Below are positions 3,538 to 47,597 of a stretch of 64,000 nucleotides of DNA, in pieces (position 1 is the stretch's first letter; each line of letters starts with the position of its first letter). The notes under the pieces were generated by a model. It saw only the letters and a program-made list of their open reading frames with translations, was not told the DNA's origin and did not search any database. This DNA is from a virus. Lineage: Duplodnaviria > Caudoviricetes. A program made the translations under genes and the position numbers. The stretch lies in IMG/VR virus record IMGVR_UViG_2576861453_000002; one strand, written 5' to 3'.

Positions 3538-4251
3538 ATGGACGATAAAACCCCGCATTCACAAACATGTCTGACTGTGGAATCCTTGAATAACATCCCG
3601 CTATTATCTTTCCTTGAAAACTCACCACTGCCATTTGGAATTAAAGATACAGAATCAAAGTTCGTTTATATGAATAGTGCTTCAAAAGATTTTTTCAATG
3701 TCCCAAATGATTTTGATGTAGAAGGCAGGTTAGACAGGGAATTCCCTTGCCCCTGGTCTGAATTAGAGCCTGAATTACAAACACATGATAGGAAGGCAGA
3801 AAAAAATAGAGGAATGACGGAGGTTATCCAAACATCCTATTACGGTAGACAGTCCATTTTAGCACCGTGCTTATGCTCCAAGTCACCACTATTAAATAGT
3901 GAAGGCGTGGCTATGGGTATACTTTACACTGCCAAAATGTTCAACTTCCTTTCAATTTTTGATTTTTTTTCAAGTTTAAAGCCTTCGGTGCTAACGCTTA
4001 ACCCGCCCGTTAATACTTTCACCGACAGGGAGCTTGAAATCATATTCTACGCCATGCAGCGCATGCCCGCGAAGGAGATTGCGCCAAGATTACATATTTC
4101 TCATAGAACCGTGGAGAACCGATTGCTAAGGATTTACAATAAGATAGGAGTCAGTTCAGTAAATGAGCTTATTGAATATTGCCATAACGTCGGATTGAAT
4201 AATTACATACCTAAAAAACTCCTCAGAGAAGGCGTGGACTTTTGCTGGTAA
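3538..4251 (+). CDS. PAS-LuxR (VqmA-like) transcriptional regulator, copy 1
   Basis: N-terminal PAS (FGIKD..SKFVYMN, GRLD.EFP, HDRK) and C-terminal LuxR HTH (FTDRELEI..KEIA..ISHRTVE). Confidence 0.92.
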   Translation: MDDKTPHSQTCLTVESLNNIPLLSFLENSPLPFGIKDTESKFVYMNSASKDFFNVPNDFDVEGRLDREFPCPWSELEPELQTHDRKAEKNRGMTEVIQTSYYGRQSILAPCLCSKSPLLNSEGVAMGILYTAKMFNFLSIFDFFSSLKPSVLTLNPPVNTFTDRELEIIFYAMQRMPAKEIAPRLHISHRTVENRLLRIYNKIGVSSVNELIEYCHNVGLNNYIPKKLLREGVDFCW

Positions 4252-4300: not shown

Positions 4301-5446
4301 CTAGTCTTTCATTTAATCAACACGTCGTCGCAGCAGTCTATTAACGTTATCTCGAATAGCTCTTCATAACAAAAACATGCGCCTATTTCCTTAATAAAAA
4401 TCAATGCTGTTTAATATTACATTACTAGCAACAACTCGGAAACAGAAACACGAAAATCCCTGACTAGGTCAATAAAAATGTTGTGTGAGCCAGGCATGTC
4501 GTCTTACCTAGCTGGTATCACTTATTTAGGCAATGGTTTAGGTTTAGTGAGAAACGACTTCGCTGCTTTTCTTAGGTATAAACCTGGTCCTTACACTACT
4601 GAGTGTAACAATTATTGCCAACCCGGACCGTCCTTTTCATGAGATCCAATAAAATTTAGTCGGAGCGGCGAGGCCAAAAATAGGCCGTTATAATTCCTTC
4701 TCGTATTCTTACTAACTTAGAACCGTTCTGAATACCAAAAGGAACCTTTGTGGATATCTTTTCAACCCACCTTGATGCTTAGAGCATGACAACACTAATT
4801 TTAAGTTAACTAATCGATATAGTAACGCCTGATTTTTATATCTGGTGTTTTATTGACGACTTTATCATAATAAGGAAATTTTTTATTCAGATGACAAGCG
4901 TCTAATCTGTTATTTTTAAGAGATTTTTATACGAAAGATTTCCCGAGAGAGATCTAACACAGTTGCTATCCTCACTCCTCGTAAGGTCATAAATCCATCC
5001 TAGGCGATAGGCCAAAAGATCCATTTTCGGCCCTGTCCCAAAATACGACCAGAAAATAATTGATCAAGTCAACTCTGGCGTCAGCGATTGCTTACAAATG
5101 GTTCCCTCTTTGTATTCATCCCACCGCCCCCCTGCTTAATGGCACCGTTCATTTTTTAACCCATTGTTATTTATCCCCTTACCCCGCCTGCTGAGTATCC
5201 TTTTTTTGCCGTCATGGTTTTTCACCTGCGCTTTTGCGTATGACGGCGCGACACAAGGTGACTCATTATTCTTCCGCCTATCGCCCATACCGCCTAGCTC
5301 TCGGCGTAACCTTTTTAGGGTAAACACTTATATCTTCTGCTTGTAAAAATGTTAATTTTAAAAAATGCGATGCGTTACTCTTTTTTTGCCTGAAAATTTA
5401 TGTAATTTTTATTGATGATACCGGAAGCTATTGCCAGGAGGCGATT

Positions 5447-6145
5447 ATGGAAGGCGGCGTATTATTTACAAATGAATCTCTTACGCACATACCCCTAATT
5501 TCATTTCTTGAGAGCTCATCTATACCATGGTTGGTCAAAAGTACAGATTCCCGCTTTGTGTATATGAATAAAGCATCGGAAGATTTTCATAATATCCCCC
5601 TCGCTTATGACTACGAGGGACGATTAGACGAGGAGTTCCCATGTCCTTGGTCAGAGTTTGCGCCTGAATTCAAGGCGCATGATAGGAAAGCCGAAAGCAC
5701 AGCGTCGGGGGCTGAAATTATCGTCACATCCTATTACGGCCGGAGCTCTATCCTAGAACCGTATTACTGCCATAAATTCCCAATACATAACGGTGAGGGC
5801 CAGGTTTTAGGAAATCTATCCTATTCTAAAAAGTTCAGTTTCGTCTCCATTGGGGATTTTTTCAAAAACTTCAAACCTTCCGTCATCAATTTAACGCCCC
5901 CAACGGACGTTTTTACTGATAAAGAATTAGAAATAATATTTTACGCAATACAGAAACTGCCTTCCAAAGAGATAGCACAAAGGCTTACCCTATCTTATAG
6001 GACAGTTGAAAATAGACTGCTCAAGATATACGAAAAAATAGGAATTAACTCACAAAAGGGGTTGATTGACTATTGCCATGCTGAGGGATTGGATAATTAT
6101 GTCCCTAAAAGACTTCTTAAAAAAGGCGTTAACTTTTGCTGGTAA
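5447..6145 (+). CDS. PAS-LuxR regulator, copy 2
   Basis: Same architecture, AGGAGG RBS, ends NYVPKRLLKKGVNFCW. Confidence 0.92.
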   Translation: MEGGVLFTNESLTHIPLISFLESSSIPWLVKSTDSRFVYMNKASEDFHNIPLAYDYEGRLDEEFPCPWSEFAPEFKAHDRKAESTASGAEIIVTSYYGRSSILEPYYCHKFPIHNGEGQVLGNLSYSKKFSFVSIGDFFKNFKPSVINLTPPTDVFTDKELEIIFYAIQKLPSKEIAQRLTLSYRTVENRLLKIYEKIGINSQKGLIDYCHAEGLDNYVPKRLLKKGVNFCW

Positions 6146-6693: not shown

Positions 6694-7091
6694 TTCCTAG
6701 ATCTTCCCTTAACACTTCAACTTACCGCATCCTGCCGCATATACATCCCATGATGCAGAAAGATGCAATAACTTACAGTTGCTTGCAGACTGTTGGGTGT
6801 CCTCAGCATTGGCCAACCTCCTGATCAAGCGATTCATCACATTTTTAGACTCGACTTCAAATCCAACCTTCTGAAGAACCATAGTCTTTAGCCCGAAAGC
6901 TAGCACGATATCACCCATCCCCTTTCAATCGATATAGCATCAAGAATGATAGTCCTAATTTTTAGCTTGATAACCTGATATCAATATCTTGCATTATTGG
7001 GGGAATGTACTCTTTACTTAAGTTGATGAACATGGGATTTTTTACTCTCAGGTTTCTAACGTATGATTAAAATCTCATAGGAGAATGTATC

Positions 7092-7808
7092 ATGGCGAAG
7101 GACAGCTCCCCAGACCCGAATAGATCTTTAACCATCGACACTCTTGATAAACTTTCAATTAAAACAATGCTGGATCACGCATCTATACCTTGGGCTATTA
7201 AAGATACAGAATCCCGTTACATCTATATGAACAAACGCTGCATGGATTTCTTAAATGTTCCTAAAGATTTCGATTATGAAGGAAAAAAAGATTCCGAATT
7301 TCCCTGCGAATGGGCTGCAATGGAATCAGAATACACGGCCCAAGATCGTAAAGCAGAACTAAGTCAAGATGGAGCTGAAATTATTTCAATTTCACATTAC
7401 TGGCGCGAACGAATCTTTGAACCCTATTACTCACCTAAATTTGCCGTAAGAAATAAAGACAATGAAATCCTAGGGACAGTATATTATGCTAAAAAATTTA
7501 ATTACGTATCAATTGGCGACTTTTTCAATGATTTGAAACCCTCCGTTATATCACTGACTCCGCCGACAGATCTGTTTACTGAGAGAGAGCTTGAAATTAT
7601 TTTTTACGCCATTCAAAGAGTTTCTGCAAAAGAAATAGCACCTAAATTATTTATTTCTCATAGAACGGTAGAAAATAGATTACTGCGAATTTATGAAAAG
7701 AGCGATACTAACTCAATTAATGGTCTGATAGAATACTGTCATAATGTCGGATTGAATAATTACGTACCTAAAAAACTCCTCAGAGAAGGCGTAAATTTTT
7801 GCTGGTAA
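7092..7808 (+). CDS. PAS-LuxR regulator, copy 3
   Basis: PAS plus LuxR HTH, ends NNYVPKKLLREGVNFCW. Confidence 0.92.
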   Translation: MAKDSSPDPNRSLTIDTLDKLSIKTMLDHASIPWAIKDTESRYIYMNKRCMDFLNVPKDFDYEGKKDSEFPCEWAAMESEYTAQDRKAELSQDGAEIISISHYWRERIFEPYYSPKFAVRNKDNEILGTVYYAKKFNYVSIGDFFNDLKPSVISLTPPTDLFTERELEIIFYAIQRVSAKEIAPKLFISHRTVENRLLRIYEKSDTNSINGLIEYCHNVGLNNYVPKKLLREGVNFCW

Positions 7809-7864
7809 TGACTATGGGCAACTTGATGCACTGCTAGCCCGCCAACTTGGAGCGGGCTACCTAC

Positions 7865-8240
7865 TCAAATGCACGGATCCTCATCAAATCTCTTTATTCT
7901 CACGCCGTTAATAATGCGTGATCACGCCAAAAATCGCTGCATCACCTCCCCGCTGTTCGTTTTCTAATAACTCCGCATCTATCAAATCATTTAGCCTGTC
8001 CACATGTTGAGGCGCTGGCCGCTCCCGCAGCAGCAGCCGGCGCATCGCATAGCGTCCATTCACCACGGCTTTGTCTATGTGCTGCGGATCAACATTGCAG
8101 AACAATCAACAACCAACAACGCCCTTCCCTAATGCCAGCATTAACCGCGCTGCTGCCGGGGCGTATGTAATTCGTTGCTGCGCTAGCGCTGATTAACGCG
8201 CTCAAAACAACCCCTGCTCCATCATTTCACGTATAACCCT
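7865..8240 (-). pseudogene. Degraded HumD/UmuD'-like gene
   Basis: Homologous to 16416..16793 (NGRYAMRRLLLRERP..AAIFGVIT..) with frameshifts; decayed SOS box CTGTACATACGTAGGT at 8254..8269. Confidence 0.85.
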
Positions 8241-8669
8241 TCGCCCCAAAATACTGTACATACGTAGGTATAAATCAGCTAAATGGGAACGTGATTAGCT
8301 TAACAAACAAGCGCTCTGCCGTAATGATGTAACGTATTGAATGCTAACGAGAACATGTTTTACATAAACATAATTGTCTATTTCCCACACAAACCACATG
8401 GTATATTTAGGACACAATAAAAAATATCTCCTCACGTTTTCGTTACACTGTCGGACACAGCAATCATGGCCCTCATTCATCACGAAGAAGATTAGCCTTC
8501 AGATCAAAGGATTGGCATAACAAAAATTCTTGGTATGCTGCCAGTGCGGATCGCCATTATGGCAATGATTCTCATACCACTTTGTTTGTGGGGTGGTATG
8601 AATTAGCCATATAAAGATGCGCTGTAGCACCACTCAACTAACTGAACCGGCTAACGTTAGTAAACTCGC

Positions 8670-8772
8670 TCCCTACACCATCCCTGCCGCCAAGAAAAAT
8701 GATGACTATCGCCATCTATCCCGCACCGGCGGCGGCAATGGGCTTATTTCGCAATGCAAGTGATAGCGCCAT
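8670..8772 (-). pseudogene. N-terminal fragment of a SAR endolysin (phage 21 R-like)
   Basis: MALSLALRNKPIAAAGAG*MAIVIIFLGGRDGVG, directly downstream of the holin pseudogene. Confidence 0.7.
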
Positions 8773-8807
8773 TGTCATCGTTCCGGATGGGTATTGGGAA
8801 TAATGGG

Positions 8808-9023
8808 TTAATCACGCCTCACTAATGCTTTTCGTAATGCCCTGCTGTCGCGCCACTTAAAAAAGGTATCAATAGCCAGCGTTTATCCAGCACCTACACT
8901 GCCGGCAATAATGCCTATGGCGTTCCATTCATCGGGACTGAATTTCGTCAACACGCCGTTAGCCACGGTTTCAGCTGAAGCGCCGCACGCGGCCGCTGTC
9001 ATTAGTCTGCTCATATTTTGCAT
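8808..9023 (-). pseudogene. Class II (phage 21 S-like) holin with internal stop
   Basis: 71 codons with a dual start MQNM; SPDEWNAIGIIAG...(TAA at 8883)...DTFFKWRDSR. Confidence 0.75.
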
Positions 9024-9232
9024 GGTCCACCTCCCGTGTTCGCGGTTGGTGCTATGTGTGGGTGAGAACAAGCAGAAACCGACCCTGAAGCAGGCAGGGT
9101 AACATCGGCGTACTGAAACTCAAAATTTGAATATTTAATCTTTGAAATAAATGCATACTTAAATGAGCGATTTTTTAAATTATCGCTCACAGAAATCATT
9201 TAAGTTTATTTTTTTCTTCGGAGGTGATAAAA

Positions 9233-11330: not shown

Positions 11331-11732
11331 TTCCTAGAACTACCATGTAACACAGTAACTTACCGCATCCTGCCGCGCTCACACGTCCCATGATGCTGAA
11401 AGATGCAACAACTTGCAGTAGCTTGCGAACGGTTGCATGTCTCAGTATTGTCCCAACCCGGATCAACCGATATATCGCATTCCTCGACTCGACTTCAAAC
11501 CCAGCACTTCAAAAAACCATGATATTCGGCCCGAAAGTTAGCACGATAGCACCCATTACTTTTCGTTCGGCATAGCGACAATAATTACAGTGCTATTTTA
11601 TGGCTTTACAACCTGATATCAACATCCTGTATTATTGGGGGAATATACTCTTTACTAAAGTGAGTAAAAATGTGATTTTTACTCTCCTTGACAATTTATT
11701 TTAGCACCTTCCAATTTCATAGAGGCTCAATT

Positions 11733-12446
11733 ATGGAGAAAAAGCCAAAAATAAGCAACAAACCGTTAATGTTAGAATCTTTAAATAATATTACAGTTCT
11801 ATCATTAATTGAACATTCAGCGCTTCCATGGGGCATCAAAGATACTAATTCACGCCATGTCTACATGAACGATGCATGCAAAGATTTCTTGGATATCCCT
11901 GAGAAATTTAACTATGAGGGGAGGACAGATAAAGAATTCCCCTGCCTTTGGGCCCCCCTTGAGCCTGAATTTACCGCACAGGATAGGAAATCAGAGCTAA
12001 GCCCAAACGGAACTGAGATAATTTCTACCACTTACTACGGAAGAGATCATGAACTTGCACCATACTATTCCCCTAAGTTTCCAATAAAGAATTGCGCAGG
12101 TGAGATTTTAGGAACAATTTATTATGCTAAAAGGTTTTCATATATATCTATCCAAGACTTCTTTAGCAGCCTTAAACCTTCAGTTTTGACCTTTAATTCT
12201 CCGGTTGATATTTTCACAGAAAGAGAGTTAGAAATAATTTTTTATGCAATTCAGAAAATACCCGCTAAAGAGATTGCACCTATACTGTGTATTTCTCATA
12301 GAACTGTTGAAAATAGGTTATTAAAGATATATGAAAAAGTCGGCACCAACTCGATAAAGGGTCTAATTGAATACTGTCATAATGTCGGATTGAATAATTA
12401 CGTACCAAAAAAACTCCTCAGAGAAGGTGTTAACTTTTGCTGGTGA
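11733..12446 (+). CDS. PAS-LuxR regulator, copy 4
   Basis: ATG at 11733 after GAGG; PAS plus LuxR HTH. Confidence 0.92.
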   Translation: MEKKPKISNKPLMLESLNNITVLSLIEHSALPWGIKDTNSRHVYMNDACKDFLDIPEKFNYEGRTDKEFPCLWAPLEPEFTAQDRKSELSPNGTEIISTTYYGRDHELAPYYSPKFPIKNCAGEILGTIYYAKRFSYISIQDFFSSLKPSVLTFNSPVDIFTERELEIIFYAIQKIPAKEIAPILCISHRTVENRLLKIYEKVGTNSIKGLIEYCHNVGLNNYVPKKLLREGVNFCW

Positions 12447-12501: not shown

Positions 12502-12879
12502 TTATATGCACGGATCATCATCAAATTCGCCCGTCCGCATATCATTCAGTACATATGTGACAACGCCAAATCCAACGACCCCATCATGCTCTTCCACCCC
12601 TTCCAGTCTGCCAGGGTAGTCAAGTCGCTCTAACCCCCGTGATGGGTACAGCTTATAGCGACGAAGCGCATACTCTCCCCCAACCTCCGCCACCACAATG
12701 CTACCGTCAACCGGCGTGAGGGATCGGTCAACAACGATAATACTTCCCTGATGTATGCCATGGCGGATAGATCCCTCGCTGGCTCGCATAAGGAACGTTG
12801 CCGCCGGTCGATGGATGCACATTTTGTCCAGGCTTAGAGACGCTTCAACGTAGTCAGCCGCTGGAGAAGGAAAGCCCAT
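12502..12879 (-). CDS. humD: HumD-like (pre-cleaved UmuD') S24-family protein
   Basis: Begins MGFPSPAADYVE, the UmuD' N-terminus; SOS box upstream, as for P1 humD. Confidence 0.85.
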   Translation of the reverse strand: MGFPSPAADYVEASLSLDKMCIHRPAATFLMRASEGSIRHGIHQGSIIVVDRSLTPVDGSIVVAEVGGEYALRRYKLYPSRGLERLDYPGRLEGVEEHDGVVGFGVVTYVLNDMRTGEFDDDPCI

Positions 12880-12896
12880 TTTAAACACCTCAAACA

Positions 12897-12912
12897 CTGT
12901 ACATGCATACAG
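12897..12912. promoter_or_regulatory. LexA SOS box
   Basis: CTGT-ACATGCAT-ACAG. Confidence 0.9.
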
Positions 12913-13055
12913 TATAAGCGCGCTATTTAAAGGGTGTAAATGGGCTGGATGGCTCAAGCATGTATATCACTGACGTTTAGTGTAATTTAGTTATCACCGC
13001 ATCATGAAAGGATGAAGCGGTTACTGAAATACCGATTAGGCAGTGGCTAGACACA

Positions 13056-14168
13056 TCACTGCGGGATGATATTGCTAGGAGTTGCTTTATTTTGCTTACT
13101 CGTTAGTCTTTTCCCCAGCTTAATCATGGGCTTCTCGATGTATTTGTGTGTAAGTGCAGATACCCCAATTGACACCACAATGGTGAGCAAAGGAACAACG
13201 AAATATTTTAAAGATAAGGGCATGTCAATTTCATGGCAAATGCGAAGAACAAAAAATAATAGAATCATGTGCACCATGTATATTGAGTATGATATCCGTC
13301 CCAAAAATAATACGGGCTTACTGTCTAAAAATGATGCCAGTAATGAATTATTATTATATTTCTGTTTAAGAATCGTAAAATAAAAGACTGTTGCCCATAT
13401 AAATATAGGGATCATACCTTTCCTCAAGAACAGGAAAGAGATAAAAGATATCGCCGCATAAAGGTAGAAAAGTTGTATAGCTGTGATTCTTTCAGAATAG
13501 TTTTTATAGAAAAAGAACGTTGCGAAACCTACCGAAAATAGAGATAGGTTCTTTCCTATAAATCCGTGCGCAAAGTTCCCATTAAGTATTATAATGAGAG
13601 ATGCAATAACACATAAAAGCAAGCAGTTGTATTTATTGTATATTCCCCTAATCAGCATGAACAGAACTGGAGCTATTAAGTAGAACTGCCATTCTACTGA
13701 GACGCTCCACGCTTGCCCTAGTAAAGTATATGCTGTATCTGGAAGAAAGTTCTCAGGAATAATCCCTTGAAGAAGTAATGAATGAAATAGAAAGTGTAGA
13801 CTTGGATTAGATTGATAATTGTTGATTATTTCAAGCCTTCTTGCGGTAAATGGACTTAATGCAAGAACATTTAAGCTTTCTTCTGTAAAATCTATCAAAA
13901 TTGCACTAGCTATTAACGCGAAAATATAAACAGGAAAGATTCGGAAAAAACGCTGCGTGATAAAAACCGGGTATGATTGTTTTTTATTATCAATCATAAA
14001 AAATATCACAAAACCACTAAGTATGATAAATACATCAACGGCGTATATATTAAGTAATGAAGGCGGTACACGCGGATGCATTAAAGGCAACCCTGCAAGG
14101 CTGTGTCCGACAACTACCCAAAGAGCCATTATCCCCCTGAGGCCTTCCAATTCGTTAATATAACGCAT
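13056..14168 (-). CDS. Acyltransferase family 3 membrane protein (OafA/Oac-like polysaccharide O-acetylase)
   Basis: LEGLRG, VDVFIILSGF, RFFRIFP, WSVSVEWQFY, GRISYSIYMVH, IEKP motifs; AT-rich. Confidence 0.9.
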   Translation of the reverse strand: MRYINELEGLRGIMALWVVVGHSLAGLPLMHPRVPPSLLNIYAVDVFIILSGFVIFFMIDNKKQSYPVFITQRFFRIFPVYIFALIASAILIDFTEESLNVLALSPFTARRLEIINNYQSNPSLHFLFHSLLLQGIIPENFLPDTAYTLLGQAWSVSVEWQFYLIAPVLFMLIRGIYNKYNCLLLCVIASLIIILNGNFAHGFIGKNLSLFSVGFATFFFYKNYSERITAIQLFYLYAAISFISFLFLRKGMIPIFIWATVFYFTILKQKYNNNSLLASFLDSKPVLFLGRISYSIYMVHMILLFFVLRICHEIDMPLSLKYFVVPLLTIVVSIGVSALTHKYIEKPMIKLGKRLTSKQNKATPSNIIPQ

Positions 14169-15485: not shown

Positions 15486-15645
15486 GACTGAATAGTTATA
15501 TATCTCTCCTCTCTTATTTTTAGCTCGATAATCTGGTAATAAATTCGTACTTAATTAGGGGGAATGTACTCTTTACCAATTTGCATAACTATGTAATGGT
15601 AGCTTTTGGTTGAAAAAAAATGGAGTATTCGATGGAGGCTGTCCC

Positions 15646-16359
15646 ATGGATAAAAAAACCTTAGAGTCACCTAGCCGATTGACTTTTGAGTCGCTTAACA
15701 ATTTCCCCCTAAAAAAATTTATGGAGAAATCTGATATTGCATGGGCTATTAAAAGTAATGATTCTCGATTTGTGTATATAAACAGGGCTGGCCTTGACTT
15801 TTCTAATATTCCGTTGGAATATGATTATGAAGGAAGGTTTGATGAGGAGTTCCCATGCGCTTGGTCTGAGCTGGCACCAGAATTTAAGGCGCATGATAGA
15901 AAAGCTGAATCCAGCCCGCAAGGGGCAGAGATAATAACCACTTCCTACTTTACACGCAACTCACTTTTAGAACCTTGGTATTGTCATAAGTTCCCAATTT
16001 ATGGAGGTGACGACCAAATACTAGGAACGCTTTGCTATTGCAAAAGGTTTAGCTTTTTCTCTACCTTTGAATTTTTTGCAAACTTGAAGCCTTCAGTTAT
16101 AACACTTAACCCTCCCGTGGATATCTTCACAGAAAGAGAACTTGAGATAATATTTTATGCCATACAGAAATTTTCAGCCAAGGAAATTGCTTTAAAACTA
16201 ATTATTTCTCATAGAACTGTCGAAAATAGGTTACTAAGAATTTACGAAAAAATAGGCGTCAATTCAATTAACGGGCTGATTGAATATTGTCATAATGTCG
16301 GCTTAAATAACTATGTACCTAAGAAACTCCTCAGAGAAGGGGTTAACTTTTGTTGGTGA
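15646..16359 (+). CDS. PAS-LuxR regulator, copy 5 (moron of the intact prophage)
   Basis: ATG at 15646 after GGAGG; PAS plus LuxR HTH. Confidence 0.92.
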   Translation: MDKKTLESPSRLTFESLNNFPLKKFMEKSDIAWAIKSNDSRFVYINRAGLDFSNIPLEYDYEGRFDEEFPCAWSELAPEFKAHDRKAESSPQGAEIITTSYFTRNSLLEPWYCHKFPIYGGDDQILGTLCYCKRFSFFSTFEFFANLKPSVITLNPPVDIFTERELEIIFYAIQKFSAKEIALKLIISHRTVENRLLRIYEKIGVNSINGLIEYCHNVGLNNYVPKKLLREGVNFCW

Positions 16360-16415: not shown

Positions 16416-16793
16416 TCAAATACACGGATTATCATCGAATTTCTTTTTCCGCGCGTCGTTGATGATATACGTGATCACTCCGAAAATCGCCGCGTCACCC
16501 TCCTGTTCATCCTCTAACGACTCCGCGTCTATCAAATCATTCAATCTGTCCAAGTGTTGCAGCGCTGGCCGCTCGCGCAGCAGTAATCTGCGCATCACAT
16601 AGCGCCCATTCACCGCTGCTATGACTATGCTGCCGTGGACTGGCTTCACAGAGCAGTCAACAACCAACAGCGCTCCTTCCCTGATGCCAGCATTAACAGA
16701 GCTGCTACCCGATCGCATGTAGTAAGTAGCAGCGCTGGCGCTGACTAGCGCATTCAAATCAACCCCCTGCTCCATCATTTCACGCATAACCAT
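16416..16793 (-). CDS. HumD/UmuD'-like S24-family protein
   Basis: ATYYMR..GALLVVD.SVKPVHGSIVIAAVNG..IFGVITYII; lacks the GFPSPA arm. Confidence 0.8.
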   Translation of the reverse strand: MVMREMMEQGVDLNALVSASAATYYMRSGSSSVNAGIREGALLVVDCSVKPVHGSIVIAAVNGRYVMRRLLLRERPALQHLDRLNDLIDAESLEDEQEGDAAIFGVITYIINDARKKKFDDNPCI

Positions 16794-16806
16794 TCGCCTT
16801 AAAATA

Positions 16807-16822
16807 CTGTACATACATACAG
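16807..16822. promoter_or_regulatory. LexA SOS box
   Basis: CTGT-ACATACAT-ACAG. Confidence 0.9.
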
Positions 16823-21202: not shown

Positions 21203-21880
21203 TTATTGAAGTGAAAATTGATAGTTATCGTCATAAAATTGGGTTTCTATATAAAGCGACTTAGTCATTGATACAGGTAAATCCGGCGCACCGCCATTGT
21301 ATTGGGCAACAAAATAAACCACTGGCGCGATTCCATCCGACGCCCCCATCCAATTATAAAAAATCGTCACACCAATGTTGGGATCACCCGGGGAAGTCGG
21401 CTGATTCACTGCATACGAAAATCCGGAATACGCAGCGGCAGAAAAACCGCTAAGTCCGTTGATGTTATCGACCCGTTTTATCTGTAATGGCAATGACGTG
21501 CCCGTATAGATGCATTTGCCTGACGCATCATAGAAGGCAATGCCCCAGCCAGAAGGATTAGGAACGTAATTACCAAACACATACAAACGGAAACCATAAG
21601 TTCCGCTGGGGGTGCTATTATCTAGTATGACGTTAGCCACCCATTCAGAATTGTTAATTTCTAATGATGTCAGTGCCCCGACTTTATTGTCTGAGGTTGC
21701 CTTGATAAAAAGGATTGCTCGTTGACTCGATGGGATACCCGTTGCGTAGCTTTGTGTTATTCCTCCAGTCTGTGCGGTGACGGTCAAGTCAATGACTTTA
21801 ACCAATACCATAGGGGTATATTGTGGCGACGCAAAAAAACTGCCGTCCTGTCGCCAAATTTCCATACCATAATTTGCCAT
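21203..21880 (-). CDS. Tail tip accessory protein
   Basis: YGMEIW and WGIAFYDASGKCIY repeats typical of genes following J. Confidence 0.6.
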   Translation of the reverse strand: MANYGMEIWRQDGSFFASPQYTPMVLVKVIDLTVTAQTGGITQSYATGIPSSQRAILFIKATSDNKVGALTSLEINNSEWVANVILDNSTPSGTYGFRLYVFGNYVPNPSGWGIAFYDASGKCIYTGTSLPLQIKRVDNINGLSGFSAAAYSGFSYAVNQPTSPGDPNIGVTIFYNWMGASDGIAPVVYFVAQYNGGAPDLPVSMTKSLYIETQFYDDNYQFSLQ

Positions 21881-21882
21881 AT

Positions 21883-22161
21883 TTATCCCGCATACACTAC
21901 CAGTTGAACATAAGCGGCATTCAAATTAGACCACGTAATGGTACTACCATTGATCGATACATTGGGTTGGTTAGCTGCTGCAAACCCATTTCTAGAAATT
22001 AACTCATATGTGAGTGTTTTATCGGGCGGAATGTCATATGACCTGTTGCCTGACGTTCCTCCGTTGTAATCCACGATATCCATTAAATACGTTGGTAGAA
22101 ACGAATTCACGACATCATAATCCGAGTTGTTGACGTAAATACTCGCACCGAATTCAGCCAT
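21883..22161 (-). CDS. Small tail tip accessory protein
   Basis: Coupled to J; ends VSINGSTITW..LVVY. Confidence 0.6.
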   Translation of the reverse strand: MAEFGASIYVNNSDYDVVNSFLPTYLMDIVDYNGGTSGNRSYDIPPDKTLTYELISRNGFAAANQPNVSINGSTITWSNLNAAYVQLVVYAG

Positions 22162-36009: not shown

Positions 36010-36954
36010 TTAAGAGCCTTGACCGTCTGCGGTGCGGGTGATCTGAAGAAGAATGCCGGTTGCTTTGTCTTCATAAGCGGTGAAATCAAAAGTGAGTGCC
36101 TGAAAAGCGTCGGCCTCAGCCAATGCTTCTGAGGAAAACTTAATGCGGGGAAGCAGAAAGGTATACGCCCCACCCTGCCCGCTTAGCGTAAACTCAAGCG
36201 AGATATCGGAATGGTCGTAGAACATCTGCGACAAATCTTCGTTCTGATACAGAAAGGTAATCGACCCTGTAGTAGCGGCATTAGTTGAACCACTGGCCGC
36301 AACGCCGCGTTGCCCGTAAACGTGGGCCTGTGATATGCCATTATCGATGTTCAACGAAACAGACGTAACCGCATTAGATGCCACACCATTTACCTTAATG
36401 GCCGCCGTCAAGGTTGCATTTTCGCCCGTAGAGTCGAACGGATCATTATTCTCTGGCTCGGCATATGTAGCTCCCGAGATAGCGGAAGCCCCATAGAGCA
36501 CGGACGCGCCCATAATGCCGAAATCAGCAGTTACTATGGCATTAGGTGCCGCCGTTAGAGCAAATGTGTTAACCAGACATCCTGGGTAGCGGCGTAAAGT
36601 ATCGATGTCGGTTTGCTTTCGCTCAATCGTAAAAGATTTTTTGGTGGCGCCGATGACCAAAACATCATCGTTCCACGTGTTAAATAACAAGCTTTGCAAC
36701 AGATAGTCGAAATCACCATACGCGAATTCGGTATTAAGTGTTCCTGACGAACTTTCGGAGCCACGGGCGGAGAAGATCGCCTTTCGGTCGCTCCTGACCT
36801 GGTTGGAACTCAGTTCATCTCGGGTTAGTGTTAATTCGCCGGGCGTTTTGGGAATGCGGATAAAGGCTGGTGTTGCCGGCGTATCCCCTTCAATAGTTTC
36901 AGGCACCAGCCAGTAATCGACCTGTTTGGCTCCAGCAGCAGCTACCATAACCAT
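36010..36954 (-). CDS. Major tail tube protein
   Basis: Position between terminator and chaperones; SFTIERKQTD..GCLVNTF; ends TADGQGS. Confidence 0.88.
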   Translation of the reverse strand: MVMVAAAGAKQVDYWLVPETIEGDTPATPAFIRIPKTPGELTLTRDELSSNQVRSDRKAIFSARGSESSSGTLNTEFAYGDFDYLLQSLLFNTWNDDVLVIGATKKSFTIERKQTDIDTLRRYPGCLVNTFALTAAPNAIVTADFGIMGASVLYGASAISGATYAEPENNDPFDSTGENATLTAAIKVNGVASNAVTSVSLNIDNGISQAHVYGQRGVAASGSTNAATTGSITFLYQNEDLSQMFYDHSDISLEFTLSGQGGAYTFLLPRIKFSSEALAEADAFQALTFDFTAYEDKATGILLQITRTADGQGS

Positions 36955-36959
36955 AATTT

Positions 36960-37370
36960 TTAGCTCCGTAATTCGTATGATGACCAATAAAAAGTCAGAT
37001 GAGCGACCGCCCAGCCATCAACAGACTGCGGATCGGTGTATTCGCGGTTTTTGATGGTGACGCGAGTGTTGTTATAGGTGAGCACAGTCCCAATTTTAAA
37101 CTGTCCCCGTAAAGTGTCGAAAATAGCCAGCATGGCGCCGTTGACACCCGCGCGGACCTTGCAAACGACATCAATCTGAACAAAGCCGCTGATCGAATCC
37201 AGACCACCTTGTCCAAAGGTTGTTGCAGTGTCGCCGGCAGGTGAAAAATAGAATCGAAGATAATCGCCATCTGGCGGATCAAACGACTCAAGCGGCCACG
37301 CCACCGGTACCGACAATGCAGCGGCCGCCGCTACCATGCGCGAGCGCAAAGCGGAGGAAATATCCTTCAC
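36960..37370 (-). CDS. Tail terminator-like protein
   Basis: VAWP..FDPP..YLR..GFVQIDV; synteny. Confidence 0.75.
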   Translation of the reverse strand: MKDISSALRSRMVAAAAALSVPVAWPLESFDPPDGDYLRFYFSPAGDTATTFGQGGLDSISGFVQIDVVCKVRAGVNGAMLAIFDTLRGQFKIGTVLTYNNTRVTIKNREYTDPQSVDGWAVAHLTFYWSSYELRS

Positions 37371-37379
37371 GGGTTAGCC

Positions 37380-37829
37380 TCACTTAACGAGTATCATGGC
37401 CTTATTGAGGTTGGTGTTGATGCGGGACATGTTGCGGCGAACCATGCCAGCGGGCGCTTGAGTGGAATAGCCAGCTACTGTATGAGGCCCGTTTGCCGGA
37501 TTTCCATTTTTGTCCTTCCATTCGCCATACTCGGCAACTTGGGCATAAGGCAAGTTGTTGGTCATATAGACCGTGAAATTACGCCCCTGGGCAAGCACGA
37601 CGGTTGTCATTTTCTCTACCGTCTGAGCGCCGTCTTTGTCGTCTAATGCGAGTTGTCCGAATACAGGCGAATCAGCGGAAACCTGCCAGTTGGCCCGGAG
37701 TCTGCCCGTATCAACCGGAGTATCAAGGATAATGCCGCGAAATAACGCTATGGCAGCCTCTTTACCGACGTACTCAGAGCGCTTAATGGTTTCGCCGGAC
37801 CATTTACCAATCGATGCGGAGAATCCCAT
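37380..37829 (-). CDS. HK97 gp10-like tail completion protein
   Basis: TPVDTGRLRANW, NNLPYA..EYG, STQAPAGMVR. Confidence 0.85.
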   Translation of the reverse strand: MGFSASIGKWSGETIKRSEYVGKEAAIALFRGIILDTPVDTGRLRANWQVSADSPVFGQLALDDKDGAQTVEKMTTVVLAQGRNFTVYMTNNLPYAQVAEYGEWKDKNGNPANGPHTVAGYSTQAPAGMVRRNMSRINTNLNKAMILVK

Positions 37830-38185
37830 TAGCGCCTCACTTGCAGCTGATAGCAGACCGTCACGTCAGCCGGAGTTTTGTCGCTGATGTTGATGATCCG
37901 CCATTTAGTTGTCCCGTCTTGGAGAAAATCACCGATAAGCGGCGTTGTATCGGCAGAGATAGTAACTTTCTTGTCGCTGGCGAGGATGAATGTGCCGTCA
38001 ACCTCAACGCGGTTAAAGTCCTGCACTACGCCGATAACAGACAGCATTTGCGGCGGTTGAGTCACTGCATCACCGGTCACCGGGTCAATCACAGAAGTGC
38101 CGGCGCGTTCGATGTACATCGTTTTACCGTATTTCGTCAGTAACCGTGTTGCGGTAGCCTGCATGCGTGGATAAAAGGCCGCCAT
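37829..38185 (-). CDS. Head closure / head-tail joining protein
   Basis: FYPRMQATATRLLTKYG..DPVTG..YQLQVR; synteny. Confidence 0.75.
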   Translation of the reverse strand: MAAFYPRMQATATRLLTKYGKTMYIERAGTSVIDPVTGDAVTQPPQMLSVIGVVQDFNRVEVDGTFILASDKKVTISADTTPLIGDFLQDGTTKWRIINISDKTPADVTVCYQLQVRR

Positions 38186-38186
38186 A

Positions 38187-38669
38187 TCATCCCCTTATCA
38201 CATCAAAGTTAACGGAAGACCCGGTGCCGACAAGGCCGCGAAGCAGGCCAGAAAGCCACGCAAAGTAAGGAGCTGATGTGCTGCTACCCTCGGCATAGGA
38301 AACGCTGACAACGCCGGTAACGGCCTCCTGTACCACTTCGCCACCACCAGAATAAGAAGGTGTGAGGTCGATAGTTTGCGCTTCGACTGCTAAACGGCAT
38401 TGGGCCTGTATCAATTGGCGCGGGATGGTGGTCAAAGCAACACCGCCGGCATAGACCTTTGTGCGTGGCCACTGAAGCGGCTGATTAGCATTAAGGGGAA
38501 GCCCCCGCCACGCCATTCCCTCCAGATAATCCATGGCCTGCATAAGCAATTGCTCTTTTACTTCATCCGATGGTGGGATGCTGTAGCCCCTGGCTGCGGC
38601 GAACATGTCAAGGTCAGCAACGCTAGCGTAGCTATTGAAGTCGGGTGATGTCGGATCGGTGTTTATCAT
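38187..38669 (-). CDS. Head-tail connector (often annotated DnaT-like)
   Basis: NSYASV, QPLQWPR, IP..LIQAQCRLA. Confidence 0.8.
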   Translation of the reverse strand: MINTDPTSPDFNSYASVADLDMFAAARGYSIPPSDEVKEQLLMQAMDYLEGMAWRGLPLNANQPLQWPRTKVYAGGVALTTIPRQLIQAQCRLAVEAQTIDLTPSYSGGGEVVQEAVTGVVSVSYAEGSSTSAPYFAWLSGLLRGLVGTGSSVNFDVIRG

Positions 38670-38683
38670 AACGTCCTCGTCGT

Positions 38684-39274
38684 TCAGGCCAATCTCCAGG
38701 CTTTACGGCGCTCAAGCCTTGGCTGACCATCCGGGTGTTTTTCGACACTAACCACATCAGCATGGTCGACCAGTGAATAGCATGGGTAGATAACAGGCCC
38801 ATCCCATGCATCCCCTATTGCAAAGTCCGCCGCTTTTGTAGAGTTCCAGCGCGATAACACTCGGTTGATATGCTGTGGTGGTACGCTGTAACAGACACCG
38901 TGAATCAGCCGTGGCAGCGTGATGTAGTCAGCCCTTGCTTTGTCAGCGGCTATTAGCCGTTCCGCTATCTGTATCTGGTATTGTGGCGGCCGGCCGGTGC
39001 CGAGATAGAAAGAACACAAGTAGTCAGGGAAACGCGTCAACCATTCGTTCACAAGCGCCTTAAACCCAGCGACAGGAATCGCATCATCTTCACAGATAAC
39101 AACCCTGCATTCCTGCTCAGCAGCCCACTCAAGCGCACGGCGATGGTTTGCATTGGCGCCGTTGCTGCCCTCATCAATCACCAGATGAGCATTAAGTGAT
39201 GCCGCTAAATCGATAGCCATCGACCTGCGCATATGATGGCCGACCACGGCAAACTTTATTTGTGGGCAAACCAT
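38684..39274 (-). CDS. Glycosyltransferase-like protein (GT-A, GT25-like)
   Basis: NHRRAL..VVICEDDA..HGVCY..D..SLVDH. Confidence 0.7.
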   Translation of the reverse strand: MVCPQIKFAVVGHHMRRSMAIDLAASLNAHLVIDEGSNGANANHRRALEWAAEQECRVVICEDDAIPVAGFKALVNEWLTRFPDYLCSFYLGTGRPPQYQIQIAERLIAADKARADYITLPRLIHGVCYSVPPQHINRVLSRWNSTKAADFAIGDAWDGPVIYPCYSLVDHADVVSVEKHPDGQPRLERRKAWRLA

Positions 39275-40707
39275 GCGAACTCCTTCCCTATGCCGTTCGT
39301 TCGGAAAACGGTATGCACCTGGGGTCCAGTGACAACGCGGTCACCGAATGTTTTCGCCACGATGCCAAACGCCAACATATCGCCGATTGCCCCATCGGGC
39401 TGTTCCGTCTTCCAGAAACGCATGCTCTCGATGCGGTAATACAGACGGACGATGCAATGCGCGAACGCCATAACGTCATCGCGTGTTCCGCCGAGTAAAC
39501 CGGCATTGAGCATGGTCTCGTTACGGTGTTGTTCGATGAACTGCTGATAAATCCGTTCTGGATGTTTCTCACGCGCCCACGCATCAGCGTGGGTTTTCGG
39601 CTCGGAGCCTACATAGATTTTACCCGGCTCCATGTCCTGCCACGGCTCGCAGAGCATCTCAACGTCTGTCCCGTCCGTGCACCAAACTAAACGGTATTCA
39701 GGATGCTCGCGTAGGTATTGATAGATATGCAGCCATCGCCGGAAATAGACGTTCATATCGACCGCCGGAACGCGAACCAGAGACGCGCCAACTGGCGCCT
39801 TCTCCAGCTCATCCACAAGCACTAGGGCATCAGCACCTTTCATCGACGCTGACCATTTCGCCAGCAAAGACGCATCCGGCTTAATCTTCACATTGCGCTG
39901 TGGGTCTGGCTGGCTTGTCAGCAATGTTGTGATTACTGCATTACGCTGACGCCTGTACTCTGCATAACCTGCATACCCTTTATCGCGCCGCTCATTGTGT
40001 ATCGTGACGTTGCGCTTTACCTGTTGTTCCCTGTCCGGGCGCGGCACTGAACGTTCTACGGCCTCATGCTCATCCAGCGAATGAATAAGTTTTCCCGATC
40101 CCGCTACATCAGCAAATGCCCAGCTTGTTAGCCCTGCATTGTGGATACGTAATGCCAGGTCGCTGTGCTCGTACATGCCTCGCCCATATATTGGGTCAAA
40201 GCCGCCGAGCTTCTCGATAACCGAGCGGTGATAATAGAGCATTACGCCGCGTTGCCCGGTGTAAGCGACGTGTTTATCATCCCTGTAAAGCACTGCGATA
40301 TCCTTTAATTTTCGCGGCCCAGCTAAATCCAGAAACTGATAAGCAAGATGTGGCTCGGGGGATTCAATGTAAGGCAGGTGCCAGTTATCAGCGATAGGCC
40401 AGGCGTCATCGTCCCACAGGAATATATGCTCACAGCCTGCCCCCATAAGCGCTTCAAGGCTTGCGTTTTTGGAAGCCACAATGCCTAGAGATATCTCATT
40501 GCGTATAAGCTTTATACCTTCAGGAGCTTCGGCTTGAGGGTTTGAGCCGTCATCCATGACGACCATCATGGCACCTAAAGGGAAATGCTTTTGATGCTGC
40601 TCAATTGCTCGCTTGAGAACATCAGGTCTATTGTGCGTGGTTATAGCAATACCGATACTTGCGCTGTTATGTGGGGAATACAAAACCCCGTCAATCATAA
40701 CCTTCAT
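39256..40707 (-). CDS. Two-domain glycosyltransferase (GT2 plus a second GT-A-like domain)
   Basis: ITTHNRP, VMDDGS, WDDDAWP, LGGFD..EHSDL; second domain has WCTDGTDV and LNAGLLGG. Confidence 0.88.
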   Translation of the reverse strand: MKVMIDGVLYSPHNSASIGIAITTHNRPDVLKRAIEQHQKHFPLGAMMVVMDDGSNPQAEAPEGIKLIRNEISLGIVASKNASLEALMGAGCEHIFLWDDDAWPIADNWHLPYIESPEPHLAYQFLDLAGPRKLKDIAVLYRDDKHVAYTGQRGVMLYYHRSVIEKLGGFDPIYGRGMYEHSDLALRIHNAGLTSWAFADVAGSGKLIHSLDEHEAVERSVPRPDREQQVKRNVTIHNERRDKGYAGYAEYRRQRNAVITTLLTSQPDPQRNVKIKPDASLLAKWSASMKGADALVLVDELEKAPVGASLVRVPAVDMNVYFRRWLHIYQYLREHPEYRLVWCTDGTDVEMLCEPWQDMEPGKIYVGSEPKTHADAWAREKHPERIYQQFIEQHRNETMLNAGLLGGTRDDVMAFAHCIVRLYYRIESMRFWKTEQPDGAIGDMLAFGIVAKTFGDRVVTGPQVHTVFRTNGIGKEFAWFAHK

Positions 40708-40721
40708 GCTTCCCTCTCATG

Positions 40722-40743
40722 AAAAAAGGGGCCGAAGCCCCTT
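40722..40743 (-). terminator. Intrinsic terminator after the capsid gene
   Basis: AAGGGGC-TTCG-GCCCCTTTTTT. Confidence 0.85.
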
Positions 40744-40748
40744 GATAG

Positions 40749-41723
40749 TTATGAACCGGAACCACCAGACAACACGGCAGCAAAAGGAACCTGCTTACGG
40801 TCAAATACTCGCGTCCAGTTAGCAGCATCGGCCATCTGGGTGTATGTCGGCGAAAGGTTCGGATCATCCTCACCTACCCAGGAGAACCCTGCCGGCTGGA
40901 TGATATAGGTTTTGCGCTCCCACAACACTTCTGCACCACCACCATTACCACCATCCGGTTTGCGCTGAAGCTCAACCGGGGTATGCGGAGTGCCAACGCC
41001 ATAACCAAATGCGCCAGAGCCGAAGAACACGGAAAGGAACTGACCTGAGTTATATTTCAGGCTGTCATCCATGAACACCGGCTTACCCAGATACGTGGCG
41101 AGGATGATATTGCCGGTCGAATCGCGAAGGTATTCGATCAGGTCGGCTTTAACCATCTGGTTCATAACAGTCGAATGCACGCCGATTGCCGAGAACTGAT
41201 CTGCGGCATCACCCGCAGTGAAGGCGGCATCCTGGAATGACTCGGCCAGCGAAGCGCCAGCGTCAACCACCATGTCGCCATCATCGTTAGCGATATTGGA
41301 CGCAATAATGCCCCGCGCCTCGCCAATCAAATAACGCTGCCATTGGCGGGTCCAGTAAGTGCCAAAGCGATTGCGGATTTGCGTCATCGGGTCGCTGTTG
41401 GCCAATTCAGAGGCCAAATCGGCCACGCCATAGCCTTTATTCAGGTACAACGTGCGGGCGCGCATGCTTCCCTGGGTTACCTTGCCGACTTCGCCCAGAT
41501 CGTCCGGGTTATCGTTGGAGGCGTTTGGTGCTTCGTCTGCATCCAGATCCTGCCAGTAGCTGACAGTCGCGGTGCCTTGGCCGTTTTGTGCGACTGCATC
41601 CAATGCCGGCAGGCGTGTGATAATCCCAGAGTTATAGACTGCGGTTTTTTCAGGGCTATTTACCGGAGCTATGGTCTGATAATAGTCCGAGACAAAAATG
41701 TCAGTAAGACGAGTGGTAGCCAT
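40749..41723 (-). CDS. Major capsid protein
   Basis: Follows the scaffold; DPMTQIRNR..YWTRQWQ, YLGKPVFMDD, NWTRVFDRK; ends LSGGSGS. Confidence 0.9.
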   Translation of the reverse strand: MATTRLTDIFVSDYYQTIAPVNSPEKTAVYNSGIITRLPALDAVAQNGQGTATVSYWQDLDADEAPNASNDNPDDLGEVGKVTQGSMRARTLYLNKGYGVADLASELANSDPMTQIRNRFGTYWTRQWQRYLIGEARGIIASNIANDDGDMVVDAGASLAESFQDAAFTAGDAADQFSAIGVHSTVMNQMVKADLIEYLRDSTGNIILATYLGKPVFMDDSLKYNSGQFLSVFFGSGAFGYGVGTPHTPVELQRKPDGGNGGGAEVLWERKTYIIQPAGFSWVGEDDPNLSPTYTQMADAANWTRVFDRKQVPFAAVLSGGSGS

Positions 41724-46916: not shown

Positions 46917-47434
46917 TAAGCCCCCTGAGACAATGAATCCATCAGGTCAGATAATGAATTGACAGTATGATCAGCTTTAATTTGCTCGCGGAACGCCTGA
47001 ACGTTAACGTGCTTGCCGAGCAACTCAAGGTTCTTCACTTTGTCAGGCCATTTGATTTTCTTGAGTAATGCCGTGCCCTCTTCTTCCCCAGAAGCTATGA
47101 CGGTTACATCTAACCCGCAAAGGGTAATGCGCCAGCACTTAGGCCAATCCTTTACAGGCTTCAATTCGCCCGATTCGGTCAGAATGTCGAGCACGTCCAT
47201 TTGGTCAATTTCAACCAGTCTTTTAAGGACATAAGCCGCATCTATGCCGATCTCCTCATTGCGTTCCGCTTTGAGTTGCGCGATTCTGTTCTGAATGTCA
47301 AGTTTTGACAATAATTGAGCGGCAATGCGGTTAGCGGTCTTCTCGCTGTACCCCGCCCGAATGGCCGCTTGTGTGGCGTTCAAATCGATGAGGTACTCGC
47401 GACAGAACATTTCCTGTTTGTCGGTGAGTGCCAT
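46916..47434 (-). CDS. Terminase small subunit
   Basis: LTDKQEMFCREYLIDLNATQAAIRAGYS, KIKWPDKVKNLELLGKH. Confidence 0.95.
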   Translation of the reverse strand: MALTDKQEMFCREYLIDLNATQAAIRAGYSEKTANRIAAQLLSKLDIQNRIAQLKAERNEEIGIDAAYVLKRLVEIDQMDVLDILTESGELKPVKDWPKCWRITLCGLDVTVIASGEEEGTALLKKIKWPDKVKNLELLGKHVNVQAFREQIKADHTVNSLSDLMDSLSQGA

Positions 47435-47597
47435 TTTAGAATTTCCTGCTGTGAAATGAAGGTGCGCCACCGAGGGGTATCAGGCTGCATGCTGCGATAT
47501 CGATATTTTGAAGTGATTGATCCCAATTCAGCCACCAGGCGCACGCGTTAATGCGCCTTGTGAATAAGAGCCGTTGTGAAAGAGGCTCTCTTGCCCA

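Follow-up and report, generated by a model that had tools for sequence, protein, structure and literature searches.

Can a prophage of a proteobacterium encode the glycosylation of its own virion? This question is raised by a 64,000-nucleotide stretch of viral DNA (Duplodnaviria; Caudoviricetes; IMG/VR record IMGVR_UViG_2576861453_000002), referred to here at its full length as the window. In it, two glycosyltransferase (GT) genes, GT1 and GT2, lie within the head operon directly behind the major capsid gene, and the major capsid protein and the tail tube protein of the same operon both end in Gly-Ser. Our comparisons of sequences and predicted structures make it highly probable that GT1 and GT2 constitute a virion O-glycosylation cassette of the type known from mycobacteriophage Che8, carried by a lambda-like siphovirus prophage of an Enterobacterales-like host. 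The putative host, called enterobacterial in a preliminary description of the window, is not E. coli and is judged from the relatives found in a scan of one genome per species for GT2.

Among non-overlapping open reading frames (ORFs) of at least 70 amino acids (aa) in the whole window, only the capsid and tube proteins end in Gly-Ser or Thr-Ser, which bears out the earlier statement that no other structural protein shares this ending. The 5.16-Mb genome to which the window belongs has 3765 ORFs of at least 150 aa, of which 16 (0.42%) end in Gly-Ser, capsid and tube included, and the chance that two specific proteins both do so is about 2e-5. Since such endings are rare in both the window and the genome, we regard the tail pattern as real and not due to chance.

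Relatives and predicted folds of GT1 and GT2

Part of PMC12363180 presents Che8 gp110 and Corndog gp38 as the two glycosyltransferases required for the capsid to be glycosylated, and names Che8, Corndog and Myrna as glycosylated phages. Excerpts of two further papers state that the Che8 glycosyltransferases modify capsids and tail tubes (PMC10877033; PMC13445384) and that the glycan is linked through oxygen (PMC13445384). A passage of a fourth paper gives glycans on the capsids of Che8 and Rita, with a genome announcement and a meeting poster as the source for Rita (PMC11256854). In our comparison, Che8 has TGS at the end of its capsid and DGS at the end of its tube, and a GS end is absent from the 11 other late proteins examined. 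Virion glycosylation of Che8 is reportedly the work of genes 108-110, as set out by Freeman and colleagues in Cell Host Microbe in 2023, who are also said to have found little evidence of virion glycosylation in the broader phage population. The Che8 glycan reportedly sits at the C terminus, as the preliminary description also held. To our knowledge, virion glycosylation has so far been shown only for mycobacteriophages. Our literature search turned up no account of it for phages of Enterobacterales or of other Gram-negative hosts, in agreement with the preliminary description, which knew of none in lambdoid phages. The parts of papers on named relatives that we consulted, including Salmonella phage FSL SP-016, contain no discussion of the GT genes.

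By sequence, GT2 is a true homolog of Che8 gp110, with which it shares 34% identity over 195 residues (BLAST, E 7e-24); Rita gp103 matches at E 4e-24. A tblastn search with the GT2 family retrieved 720 phage records, mostly of mycobacteriophages, and the motif E62-D63-D64-A65 (EDDA) is invariant in nine GT2 sequences from both host phyla, Che8 and Rita included. GT2 matched no Pfam family and nothing in a profile search of PDB sequences. Its predicted structure (predicted local distance difference test, pLDDT, 91) has a GT-A fold, and the nearest solved structures (Foldseek E 4e-6 to 1e-3) include mimivirus R655, the protein O-mannose N-acetylglucosamine transferase POMGnT1, the collagen hydroxylysine glycosyltransferases LH3/COLGALT1 and the polypeptide N-acetylgalactosamine (GalNAc) transferase ppGalNAc-T2. 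These neighbors of the modeled fold would fit a protein-directed enzyme.

GT1 is predicted to consist of two GT-A domains, as had been suggested from its sequence. In the predicted structure (pLDDT 78.7), residues 13-248 align with polypeptide GalNAc-transferase T2 (Z 17.2, root-mean-square deviation (rmsd) 3.2, 216 residues aligned), and residues 253-470 align with the GT6 blood-group enzymes GTA/GTB and alpha-1,3-galactosyltransferase (Z 15.7, rmsd 3.2, 192 residues aligned). The model thus presents a GT2/GT27-like and a GT6-like GT-A fold (these being family and not gene names) with acidic metal-binding motifs, of which D99 and D101 in the N-terminal domain (21 sequences) and D345, T347 and D348 in the C-terminal domain are invariant. 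The earlier suggestion of up to three GT activities fits the three predicted GT-A domains of the two proteins, each with conserved acidic motifs. Residues 20-107 of GT1 match Pfam Glycos_transf_2 at 27.6 bits (cut-off 23.3), 58% of the members of one Atlas neighbor cluster of the C-terminal domain carry GT_PLOD, and the best match of GT1 in the profile search of PDB sequences had an E of only about 0.9. Homologs of GT1 were found in 605 phage records, 567 of them Mycobacterium. Full-length homologs occur in 17 enterobacterial phage records (70-76% identity), in 300-kb Klebsiella/Serratia phages (about 54%) and, as the large GT of the Rita gp101 type, in Mycobacterium phages (about 45%). GT1 has no significant BLAST match to Che8 gp110.

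Both GT-A domains of GT1 also align with two-domain glycosaminoglycan synthases (Foldseek E 3e-11), namely Pasteurella heparosan synthase 2 (Z 17.6, 368 residues) and E. coli K4 chondroitin polymerase (Z 15.5, 358 residues), but with only 11-13% identity and a different domain orientation (rmsd 12-17). We treat this likeness of the predicted structure as a lead only, and not as evidence that GT1 is a polymerase. In some cassettes the first GT-A domain continues into a C-terminal part that is longer and of another kind (637-698 aa; L023 9106-11202, L108 7941-10001, L144 5931-7997 and L145 8058-9971, where L numbers denote our loci). With alternative C-terminal parts behind the same first domain, the extension enzymes look modular.

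The window holds a gp110-family GT, a further GT adjoining it and Gly-Ser tails on capsid and tube, the sequence features by which we class its cassette as Che8-type. As in Che8, the enzymes are phage-encoded and predicted to be cytoplasmic, capsid and tube share the Gly-Ser end, and expression may be late. The systems differ in their hosts, an actinobacterium for Che8 and a proteobacterium for the phage of the window, and in position, since the cassette of the window sits inside the head operon between capsid and adaptor, unlike that of Che8. Phages Rita and Xula (Cluster F and I) encode the same two enzyme families in the same order: a large GT (about 478 aa), which is the full-length relative of GT1 mentioned above, a small insert gene, a gp110-type GT and HNH. 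Their cassette lies at the right genome end and not between capsid and adaptor, and it contains an insert gene that the window lacks. In Xula the capsid ends in TAS and the tube in DGS, so that both end in Ser as in the window. In Familton, a Corndog relative (Cluster O), GT genes including a GT2 homolog do lie within the head gene block, the capsid ends in VGS and the tube in Ser; but the GT genes stand between the portal and protease genes together with an O-methyltransferase gene, the companion GT is another one, and the tube end is Asp-Ser (GDS). The small gene between the GT genes is variable: it occupies 21499-22011 in mEp390 (L002; annotated 'similar to Corndog gp56'), 47007-47480 in Xula (L325; kinase) and 4425-4637 in Rita (L006; hypothetical).

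Terminal serines and the cassette in related phages

We scanned one genome per species with an alignment of GT2 and obtained 67 loci. Most are from Enterobacterales (Kosakonia, Citrobacter, Enterobacter, Pantoea, Erwinia, Rahnella, Sodalis, Leminorella and others), and a few are in records titled Rhizobiaceae, Luteimonas, Methylophilaceae, Pseudomonas, Nocardia, Mycobacterium and Oscillospiraceae. A GT1 homolog lies upstream of GT2 in most of them (48 near-full-length matches), usually ending less than 20 nt from the GT2 start. Across the 67 loci, 79 of 1440 non-overlapping ORFs of at least 90 aa end in GS, all on the strand of GT2. Clustering and PHROG searches identified 37 of these as capsids of five families (phrog_10, 617, 247, 133/4523 and 771) and 33 as major tail proteins in nine clusters (best PHROG families 158, 584, 853, 41, 290 and 13196); the remaining nine are three Ad1 adaptors, a head decoration protein, a portal, a chaperone and three proteins of unknown function. 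Every recognized capsid (47/47, 37 with GS) and every recognized tube (41/41, 33 with GS) ends in Ser, the homologs without GS ending in TS, NS, AS or SS, and GS ends were found on 9 of the 1352 other ORFs. Where both proteins were present (39 loci), the ends were GS/GS in 28, TS/TS in five and mixed in six. Loci L113, L134 and L142, with no head genes within 10 kb, and the high-GC loci L141 and L150-L158, unreadable by a simple ORF caller, were uninformative.

Two side observations concern the variety of these ends. Thr-Ser, once Asn-Ser, occurs on capsid and/or tube in L093, L095, L097, L102, L104, L107, L110, L115 and L132, and these loci fall in two or three GT2 subclades of a quick, weakly supported tree, which hints, as a lead only, that enzyme and tag co-vary. 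In two GT2-bearing loci, a head decoration protein (L121, 17259-17627; phrog_122) and a portal (L129, 13508-14782) end in ESGS and may be further acceptors.

We then compared relatives with and without the cassette. In 80 viral contigs with capsids 77-87% identical to that of the window, all seven capsids with GT1 and GT2 directly after the capsid gene end in GS, and none of the 73 without a GT in the locus does so; the latter end mostly in GTATP or GTTTP, some in GG and one in SS, and in 65 of these 73 loci the sequence extends at least 3 kb past the end of the capsid gene. Pseudomonas phage Aurca01, the closest isolated phage (78% identity), lacks a GT and has a TVTP end on its capsid and a DPAP end on its tube. 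The tube of the seven cassette-bearing loci belongs to a different family, of 225 aa, and ends in GS in six loci and SS in one; no other plus-strand ORF of at least 90 aa in these loci has a GS end. This tube family was examined in a further set of 80 viral contigs, found by an alignment of the family (a single-protein query returned two loci only). Here, both GT2-bearing loci have a GS end, versus one of 56 GT2-negative loci with at least 8 kb upstream, and most tubes of these 56 loci end in VTDAAA. For the tube family of the window itself, one member was found with a cassette (L130) and ends in VVQGS, and the tube's ten distant GT-less relatives (24-26% identity), like the Aurca01 tube, have no Ser end. 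The window tube gave no pattern match in viral contigs, and hence has no close GT-less control.

The third comparison used HK97-like lambdoid phages. In mEp390, the lysis genes are followed by GT1, the insert gene, GT2 and then HNH and terminase genes; the capsid ends in SSGS and the tube in ASGS. The position of the cassette in these relatives, directly before the HNH endonuclease and terminase genes, is that of the Che8 genes. Among 80 contigs with HK97-type capsids, 63 carry GT2, one of which was found only by a search of the whole record. A GS end is present on all 80 capsids. On the tubes it is present in 53 of 56 GT2-bearing loci, which comprise four tube types, versus none of five complete GT-less genomes. 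HK97 has no GT in its annotation, and shows SSGS at the end of its capsid and TLTIS at the end of its tube. The capsid tail can therefore persist without the enzymes, and the tube tail follows the cassette. The co-occurrence called for in the preliminary description was thus found: Gly-Ser or Thr-Ser tails track the cassette across unrelated capsid and tube families and are absent from the closest GT-less relatives.

The end of one further HK97-type protein is of note. Beside HK97 gp5 (L159, 4028-5185), which has the SSGS end, the Ad1 adaptor gp6 (5219-5545) ends in EEGS, and adaptor ends of this type recur in GT-bearing relatives (L003, a record of mEp390, 5170-5496; L127, L133 and L120). The adaptor may be a third acceptor, or the adaptor and capsid ends may be leftovers.

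Operon position, candidate mechanism and competing explanations

The minus strand of the window is organized as a siphovirus late operon, with small and large terminase, portal, MuF-like head protein, scaffold and capsid genes, then GT1, GT2, Ad1, head closure, tail completion, tail terminator and tube (Table 1), and distally chaperones, tape measure and a lambda J-like tip protein. The capsid, both GT genes and the tube were recovered exactly where the preliminary description had put them. It had also proposed that the GT genes are coupled, that they lie in the head operon before a head-tail connector and that a terminator follows the capsid gene, and these proposals agree with what we found, with one correction: the 19-nt overlap of GT1 and GT2 fits translational coupling; the gene after GT2, called a connector there, encodes the head-tail adaptor Ad1; and GT1 and GT2 lie on the strand of their flanking genes behind a terminator-like hairpin. 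The hairpin is contained in the 41 nt that separate the stop codon of the capsid gene from the GT1 ATG, its T-run extends to this ATG, and it may attenuate transcription after the capsid gene. The listed TTG start of the tube (36951-36987) gives a 28-nt overlap with the tail terminator gene; since matches to the tube family start at residue 10-25, an internal ATG at residue 11 or 13 is probably the true start. The 5.7-kb region had no megablast match in the phage collection or in E. coli genomes.

Table 1. Features of the candidate glycosylation cassette, its predicted acceptors and the genes between them
Feature	Position in the window	Strand	Evidence
Major capsid protein, 324 aa	40749..41723	-	phrog_247 major head protein, E 1.4e-99; Pfam Gp13-like
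Capsid tail Gly-Gly-Ser-Gly-Ser, predicted acceptor tag	40752..40766	-	Protein ends VLSGGSGS
Terminator-like hairpin in the capsid/GT1 gap	40726..40743	-	7-bp stem with 5 GC pairs; T-run
GT1, two-domain glycosyltransferase, 483 aa, predicted glycan extension enzyme	39256..40707	-	phrog_1579, E 1.6e-231
GT1 N-terminal GT-A domain, residues 13-248, DDD motif at 99-101	39964..40671	-	Pfam Glycos_transf_2; predicted structure
GT1 C-terminal GT-A domain, GT6-like, residues 253-470	39298..39951	-	Structure alignment
GT2, gp110-family glycosyltransferase, 196 aa, predicted initiating enzyme	38684..39274	-	phrog_854, E 9.7e-68
Head-tail adaptor Ad1, gene after GT2	38187..38669	-	phrog_477, E 3.3e-51
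Head closure, tail completion and tail terminator genes, between cassette and tube	36960..38185	-	phrog_161, phrog_169, phrog_179
Tail tube, 325 aa as listed, predicted glycan acceptor	36010..36987	-	Pfam Phage_tube_2, E 3.8e-45; phrog_290
Tube tail Gly-Gln-Gly-Ser, predicted acceptor tag	36013..36024	-	Protein ends TADGQGS

We propose the following mechanism. During late transcription, partial read-through of the hairpin after the capsid gene would give low levels of two soluble cytoplasmic enzymes. GT2, with its EDD motif for metal and nucleotide-sugar, would recognize the flexible Gly-Ser tail (Thr-Ser in some relatives) of capsid and tube and add a first sugar in O-linkage, most likely on the terminal serine. 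GT1, with its GT2/GT27-like and GT6-like domains, would add more sugars, possibly alternately as two-domain synthases do, and the assembled head and tail would carry a glycan on every capsid and tube subunit. We infer the sugar attachment, the acceptor atom, the order of the enzymes, the glycan composition and the benefit from the observed enzyme homology, folds and motifs, operon position and tight co-occurrence of cassette and Ser tails. By analogy with Che8, the glycan may benefit the phage by shielding it from antibodies; it may also protect against proteases or affect adhesion.

Several points weigh against virion glycosylation as we propose it. GT1, the partner enzyme, has no BLAST-level match to Che8 gp108 or gp109. 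The structural matches of GT2 are moderate (TM-score about 0.55-0.59) and generic for GT-A folds. In the survey, capsids and tubes were recognized by similarity to the GS-ending set, so that any family lacking a GS-ending protein would have escaped notice. Relatives do not count as independent cases. The seven cassette-bearing capsids are among the 17 nearest relatives in the list of 80, six of them in the top seven, and may therefore be one clade with few independent events. An SGS end persists on the capsids of HK97 and of four further complete records without a GT. Of two GT-less proviruses with HK97-type capsids, L196 (90% complete) has GS on both capsid and tube, and in the 225-aa tube family the GT-less L296 has a tube ending in PGS, with no GT2 in the whole 60-kb record (provirus, 100% complete). 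In both exceptions the enzyme may have been lost, may lie elsewhere in the host genome or may belong to another family. Finally, three tubes of GT2-bearing loci lack GS (L170, L175 and L229, ending in CTLTVN or CTLTIS).

These three tubes are of the HK97 gp12 type, with 83, 84 and 100% identity to gp12. HK97 gp12 presumably carries an immunoglobulin (Ig)-like C-terminal domain, and Pfam and PHROG searches of a different tube (L108) suggest, by analogy, that such a domain stands at the end of gp12-type tubes. As a side observation, Ig domain and glycan tail may be alternative decorations of the tube.

The preliminary description had held that Gly-Ser tails equally common in GT-less relatives would speak against its idea. 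In HK97-type phages this is partly so, since the capsid tail is kept in the five complete GT-less records; the idea stood for the tubes of these records, which do not end in GS. The retained capsid ends show that tails can outlive the enzymes, and, together with the mosaic nature of phage genomes, they give some weight to the explanation that the cassette is a passenger or inactive relic and the Gly-Ser tails are a neutral heritage of modules once associated with it. We consider this unlikely. Both genes are intact with all conserved acidic motifs present, and they are tightly packed and coupled in the operon. The tails occur on at least five capsid families and nine tube clusters (about six PHROG major-tail families), always with the cassette nearby. 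Moreover, the nearest GT-less ends differ at similar length (GTATP versus GGSGS, VTDAAA versus INQGS, VVTP versus AQAGS), so that tails appear to turn over quickly without the cassette.

A second explanation is that the enzymes modify the lipopolysaccharide (LPS) core, O-antigen or capsule of the host, for lysogenic conversion or superinfection exclusion, and that the tails are unrelated. Genes that modify O-antigen are frequent in prophages, PHROGs places both families in the class 'moron, auxiliary metabolic gene and host takeover', and three of 25 GT2 relatives gave weak matches to Pfam Glyco_transf_25 (LPS biosynthesis; best E 0.071). Gtr systems, which act on O-antigen, likewise consist of phage-encoded sugar transferases, but they are membrane proteins encoded by conversion genes. 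GT1 and GT2 are predicted to be soluble: neither protein has a hydrophobic membrane segment (maximum 19-residue Kyte-Doolittle hydropathy 1.03 for GT1 and 1.07 for GT2), and no gene for a GtrA-like flippase or small membrane protein adjoins them. They are encoded in the late head operon between capsid and adaptor, on the same strand, and are neither next to the attachment site nor under lysogenic control. A more conventional candidate for conversion, a membrane Acyl_transf_3 gene, is present elsewhere in the window (13056-14168). The host-directed explanation also leaves unexplained why the capsid and tube tails track the cassette, and part of PMC12363180 describes the family member gp110 as acting on capsids. 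All of this makes a host glycoconjugate a very improbable target.

The least credible explanation, which we think has next to no prospect of being right, is glycosylation of phage DNA against restriction in the manner of T4: GT2 relatives are labeled 'glucosyltransferase' in phrog_854 and several GenBank records, but the T4 glucosyltransferases that act on DNA, also phage-encoded, have a GT-B fold and both GT1 and GT2 are predicted to be GT-A, no hydroxymethylase or base-modification genes were seen in the annotated part of the window (the early region having been scanned in part), and the head-operon position and link to the tails point to a protein target.

Distribution of the cassette and further features of the window

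Virion glycosylation by the cassette, if it occurs as proposed, would not be confined to the window. Prophages across many genera of Enterobacterales, and those of some other Proteobacteria, carry the enzyme family together with matching acceptor tails. Members of the family are likewise encoded by mEp390 and HK542, culturable HK97-group phages of E. coli K-12, and by jumbo phages of Klebsiella. Sugar-coated phage particles thus probably exist also among phages of gut and plant bacteria, and the question can be tested in the best phage genetics systems. A sequence rule, a Ser end that is usually Gly-Ser, would allow glycosylated virion proteins to be predicted from sequence alone. The GT genes are now classed as 'morons'. 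The rule would bear on how antibodies view phage particles and on glyco-tagging of proteins in E. coli.

A broader idea, to which we give an even chance, is that enzymes of the gp110 family recognize a minimal, portable tag at the C terminus, namely a short and flexible tail with Gly-Ser or Thr-Ser at its end, in phages of both Actinobacteria and Proteobacteria. If so, gain or loss of the cassette would be accompanied by gain or loss of the tag on the capsid, the tube and sometimes the adaptor, decoration or portal protein, and the long-studied SGS end of the HK97 capsid would be what remains of such a glycosylation system. In gp12-type tubes, which lack the tag even in GT-bearing phages, the presumed Ig-like domain would be an alternative surface decoration. 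Virion glycosylation would be common in temperate Enterobacterales phages and present in 300-kb Klebsiella phages, and tag and GT2 together might glycosylate any protein in E. coli.

Some records with the cassette lie outside the enterobacteria. The closest GT2 relative of the window (77%) is in L092, a record titled Martelella alba, an alphaproteobacterium, and HK97-type cassettes occur in records of Pseudomonas lundensis (L100) and of a Rhizobiaceae metagenome-assembled genome (L136, L137 and L139). These records may reflect a wide host range, or may be mislabeled or contaminant contigs. In jumbo myoviruses, the GT1-GT2 pair (about 54% and 49% identity) is an isolated two-gene unit on the strand opposite to its neighbors, as at 7001-9070 of Klebsiella phage FBKp24 (L324) and in about 12 related 300-kb phage records.

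Elsewhere in the window, the Acyl_transf_3 gene at 13056-14168, a conventional candidate for modifying surface polysaccharides and distinct from the GT cassette, lies on the minus strand near a Peptidase_S24 (UmuD/LexA-like) gene at 12502-12957, and a minus-strand ORF at 16416-16814 has an ending (DD-PCI) similar to that of the Peptidase_S24 gene. Adjoining the prophage is an unusual local family of five paralogous proteins of about 240 aa, all ending in GV(D/N)FCW and encoded on the plus strand (3538-4251, 5447-6145, 7092-7808, 11688-12446 and 15610-16359); the three that were scanned are regulators of the PAS and LuxR type (GerE).

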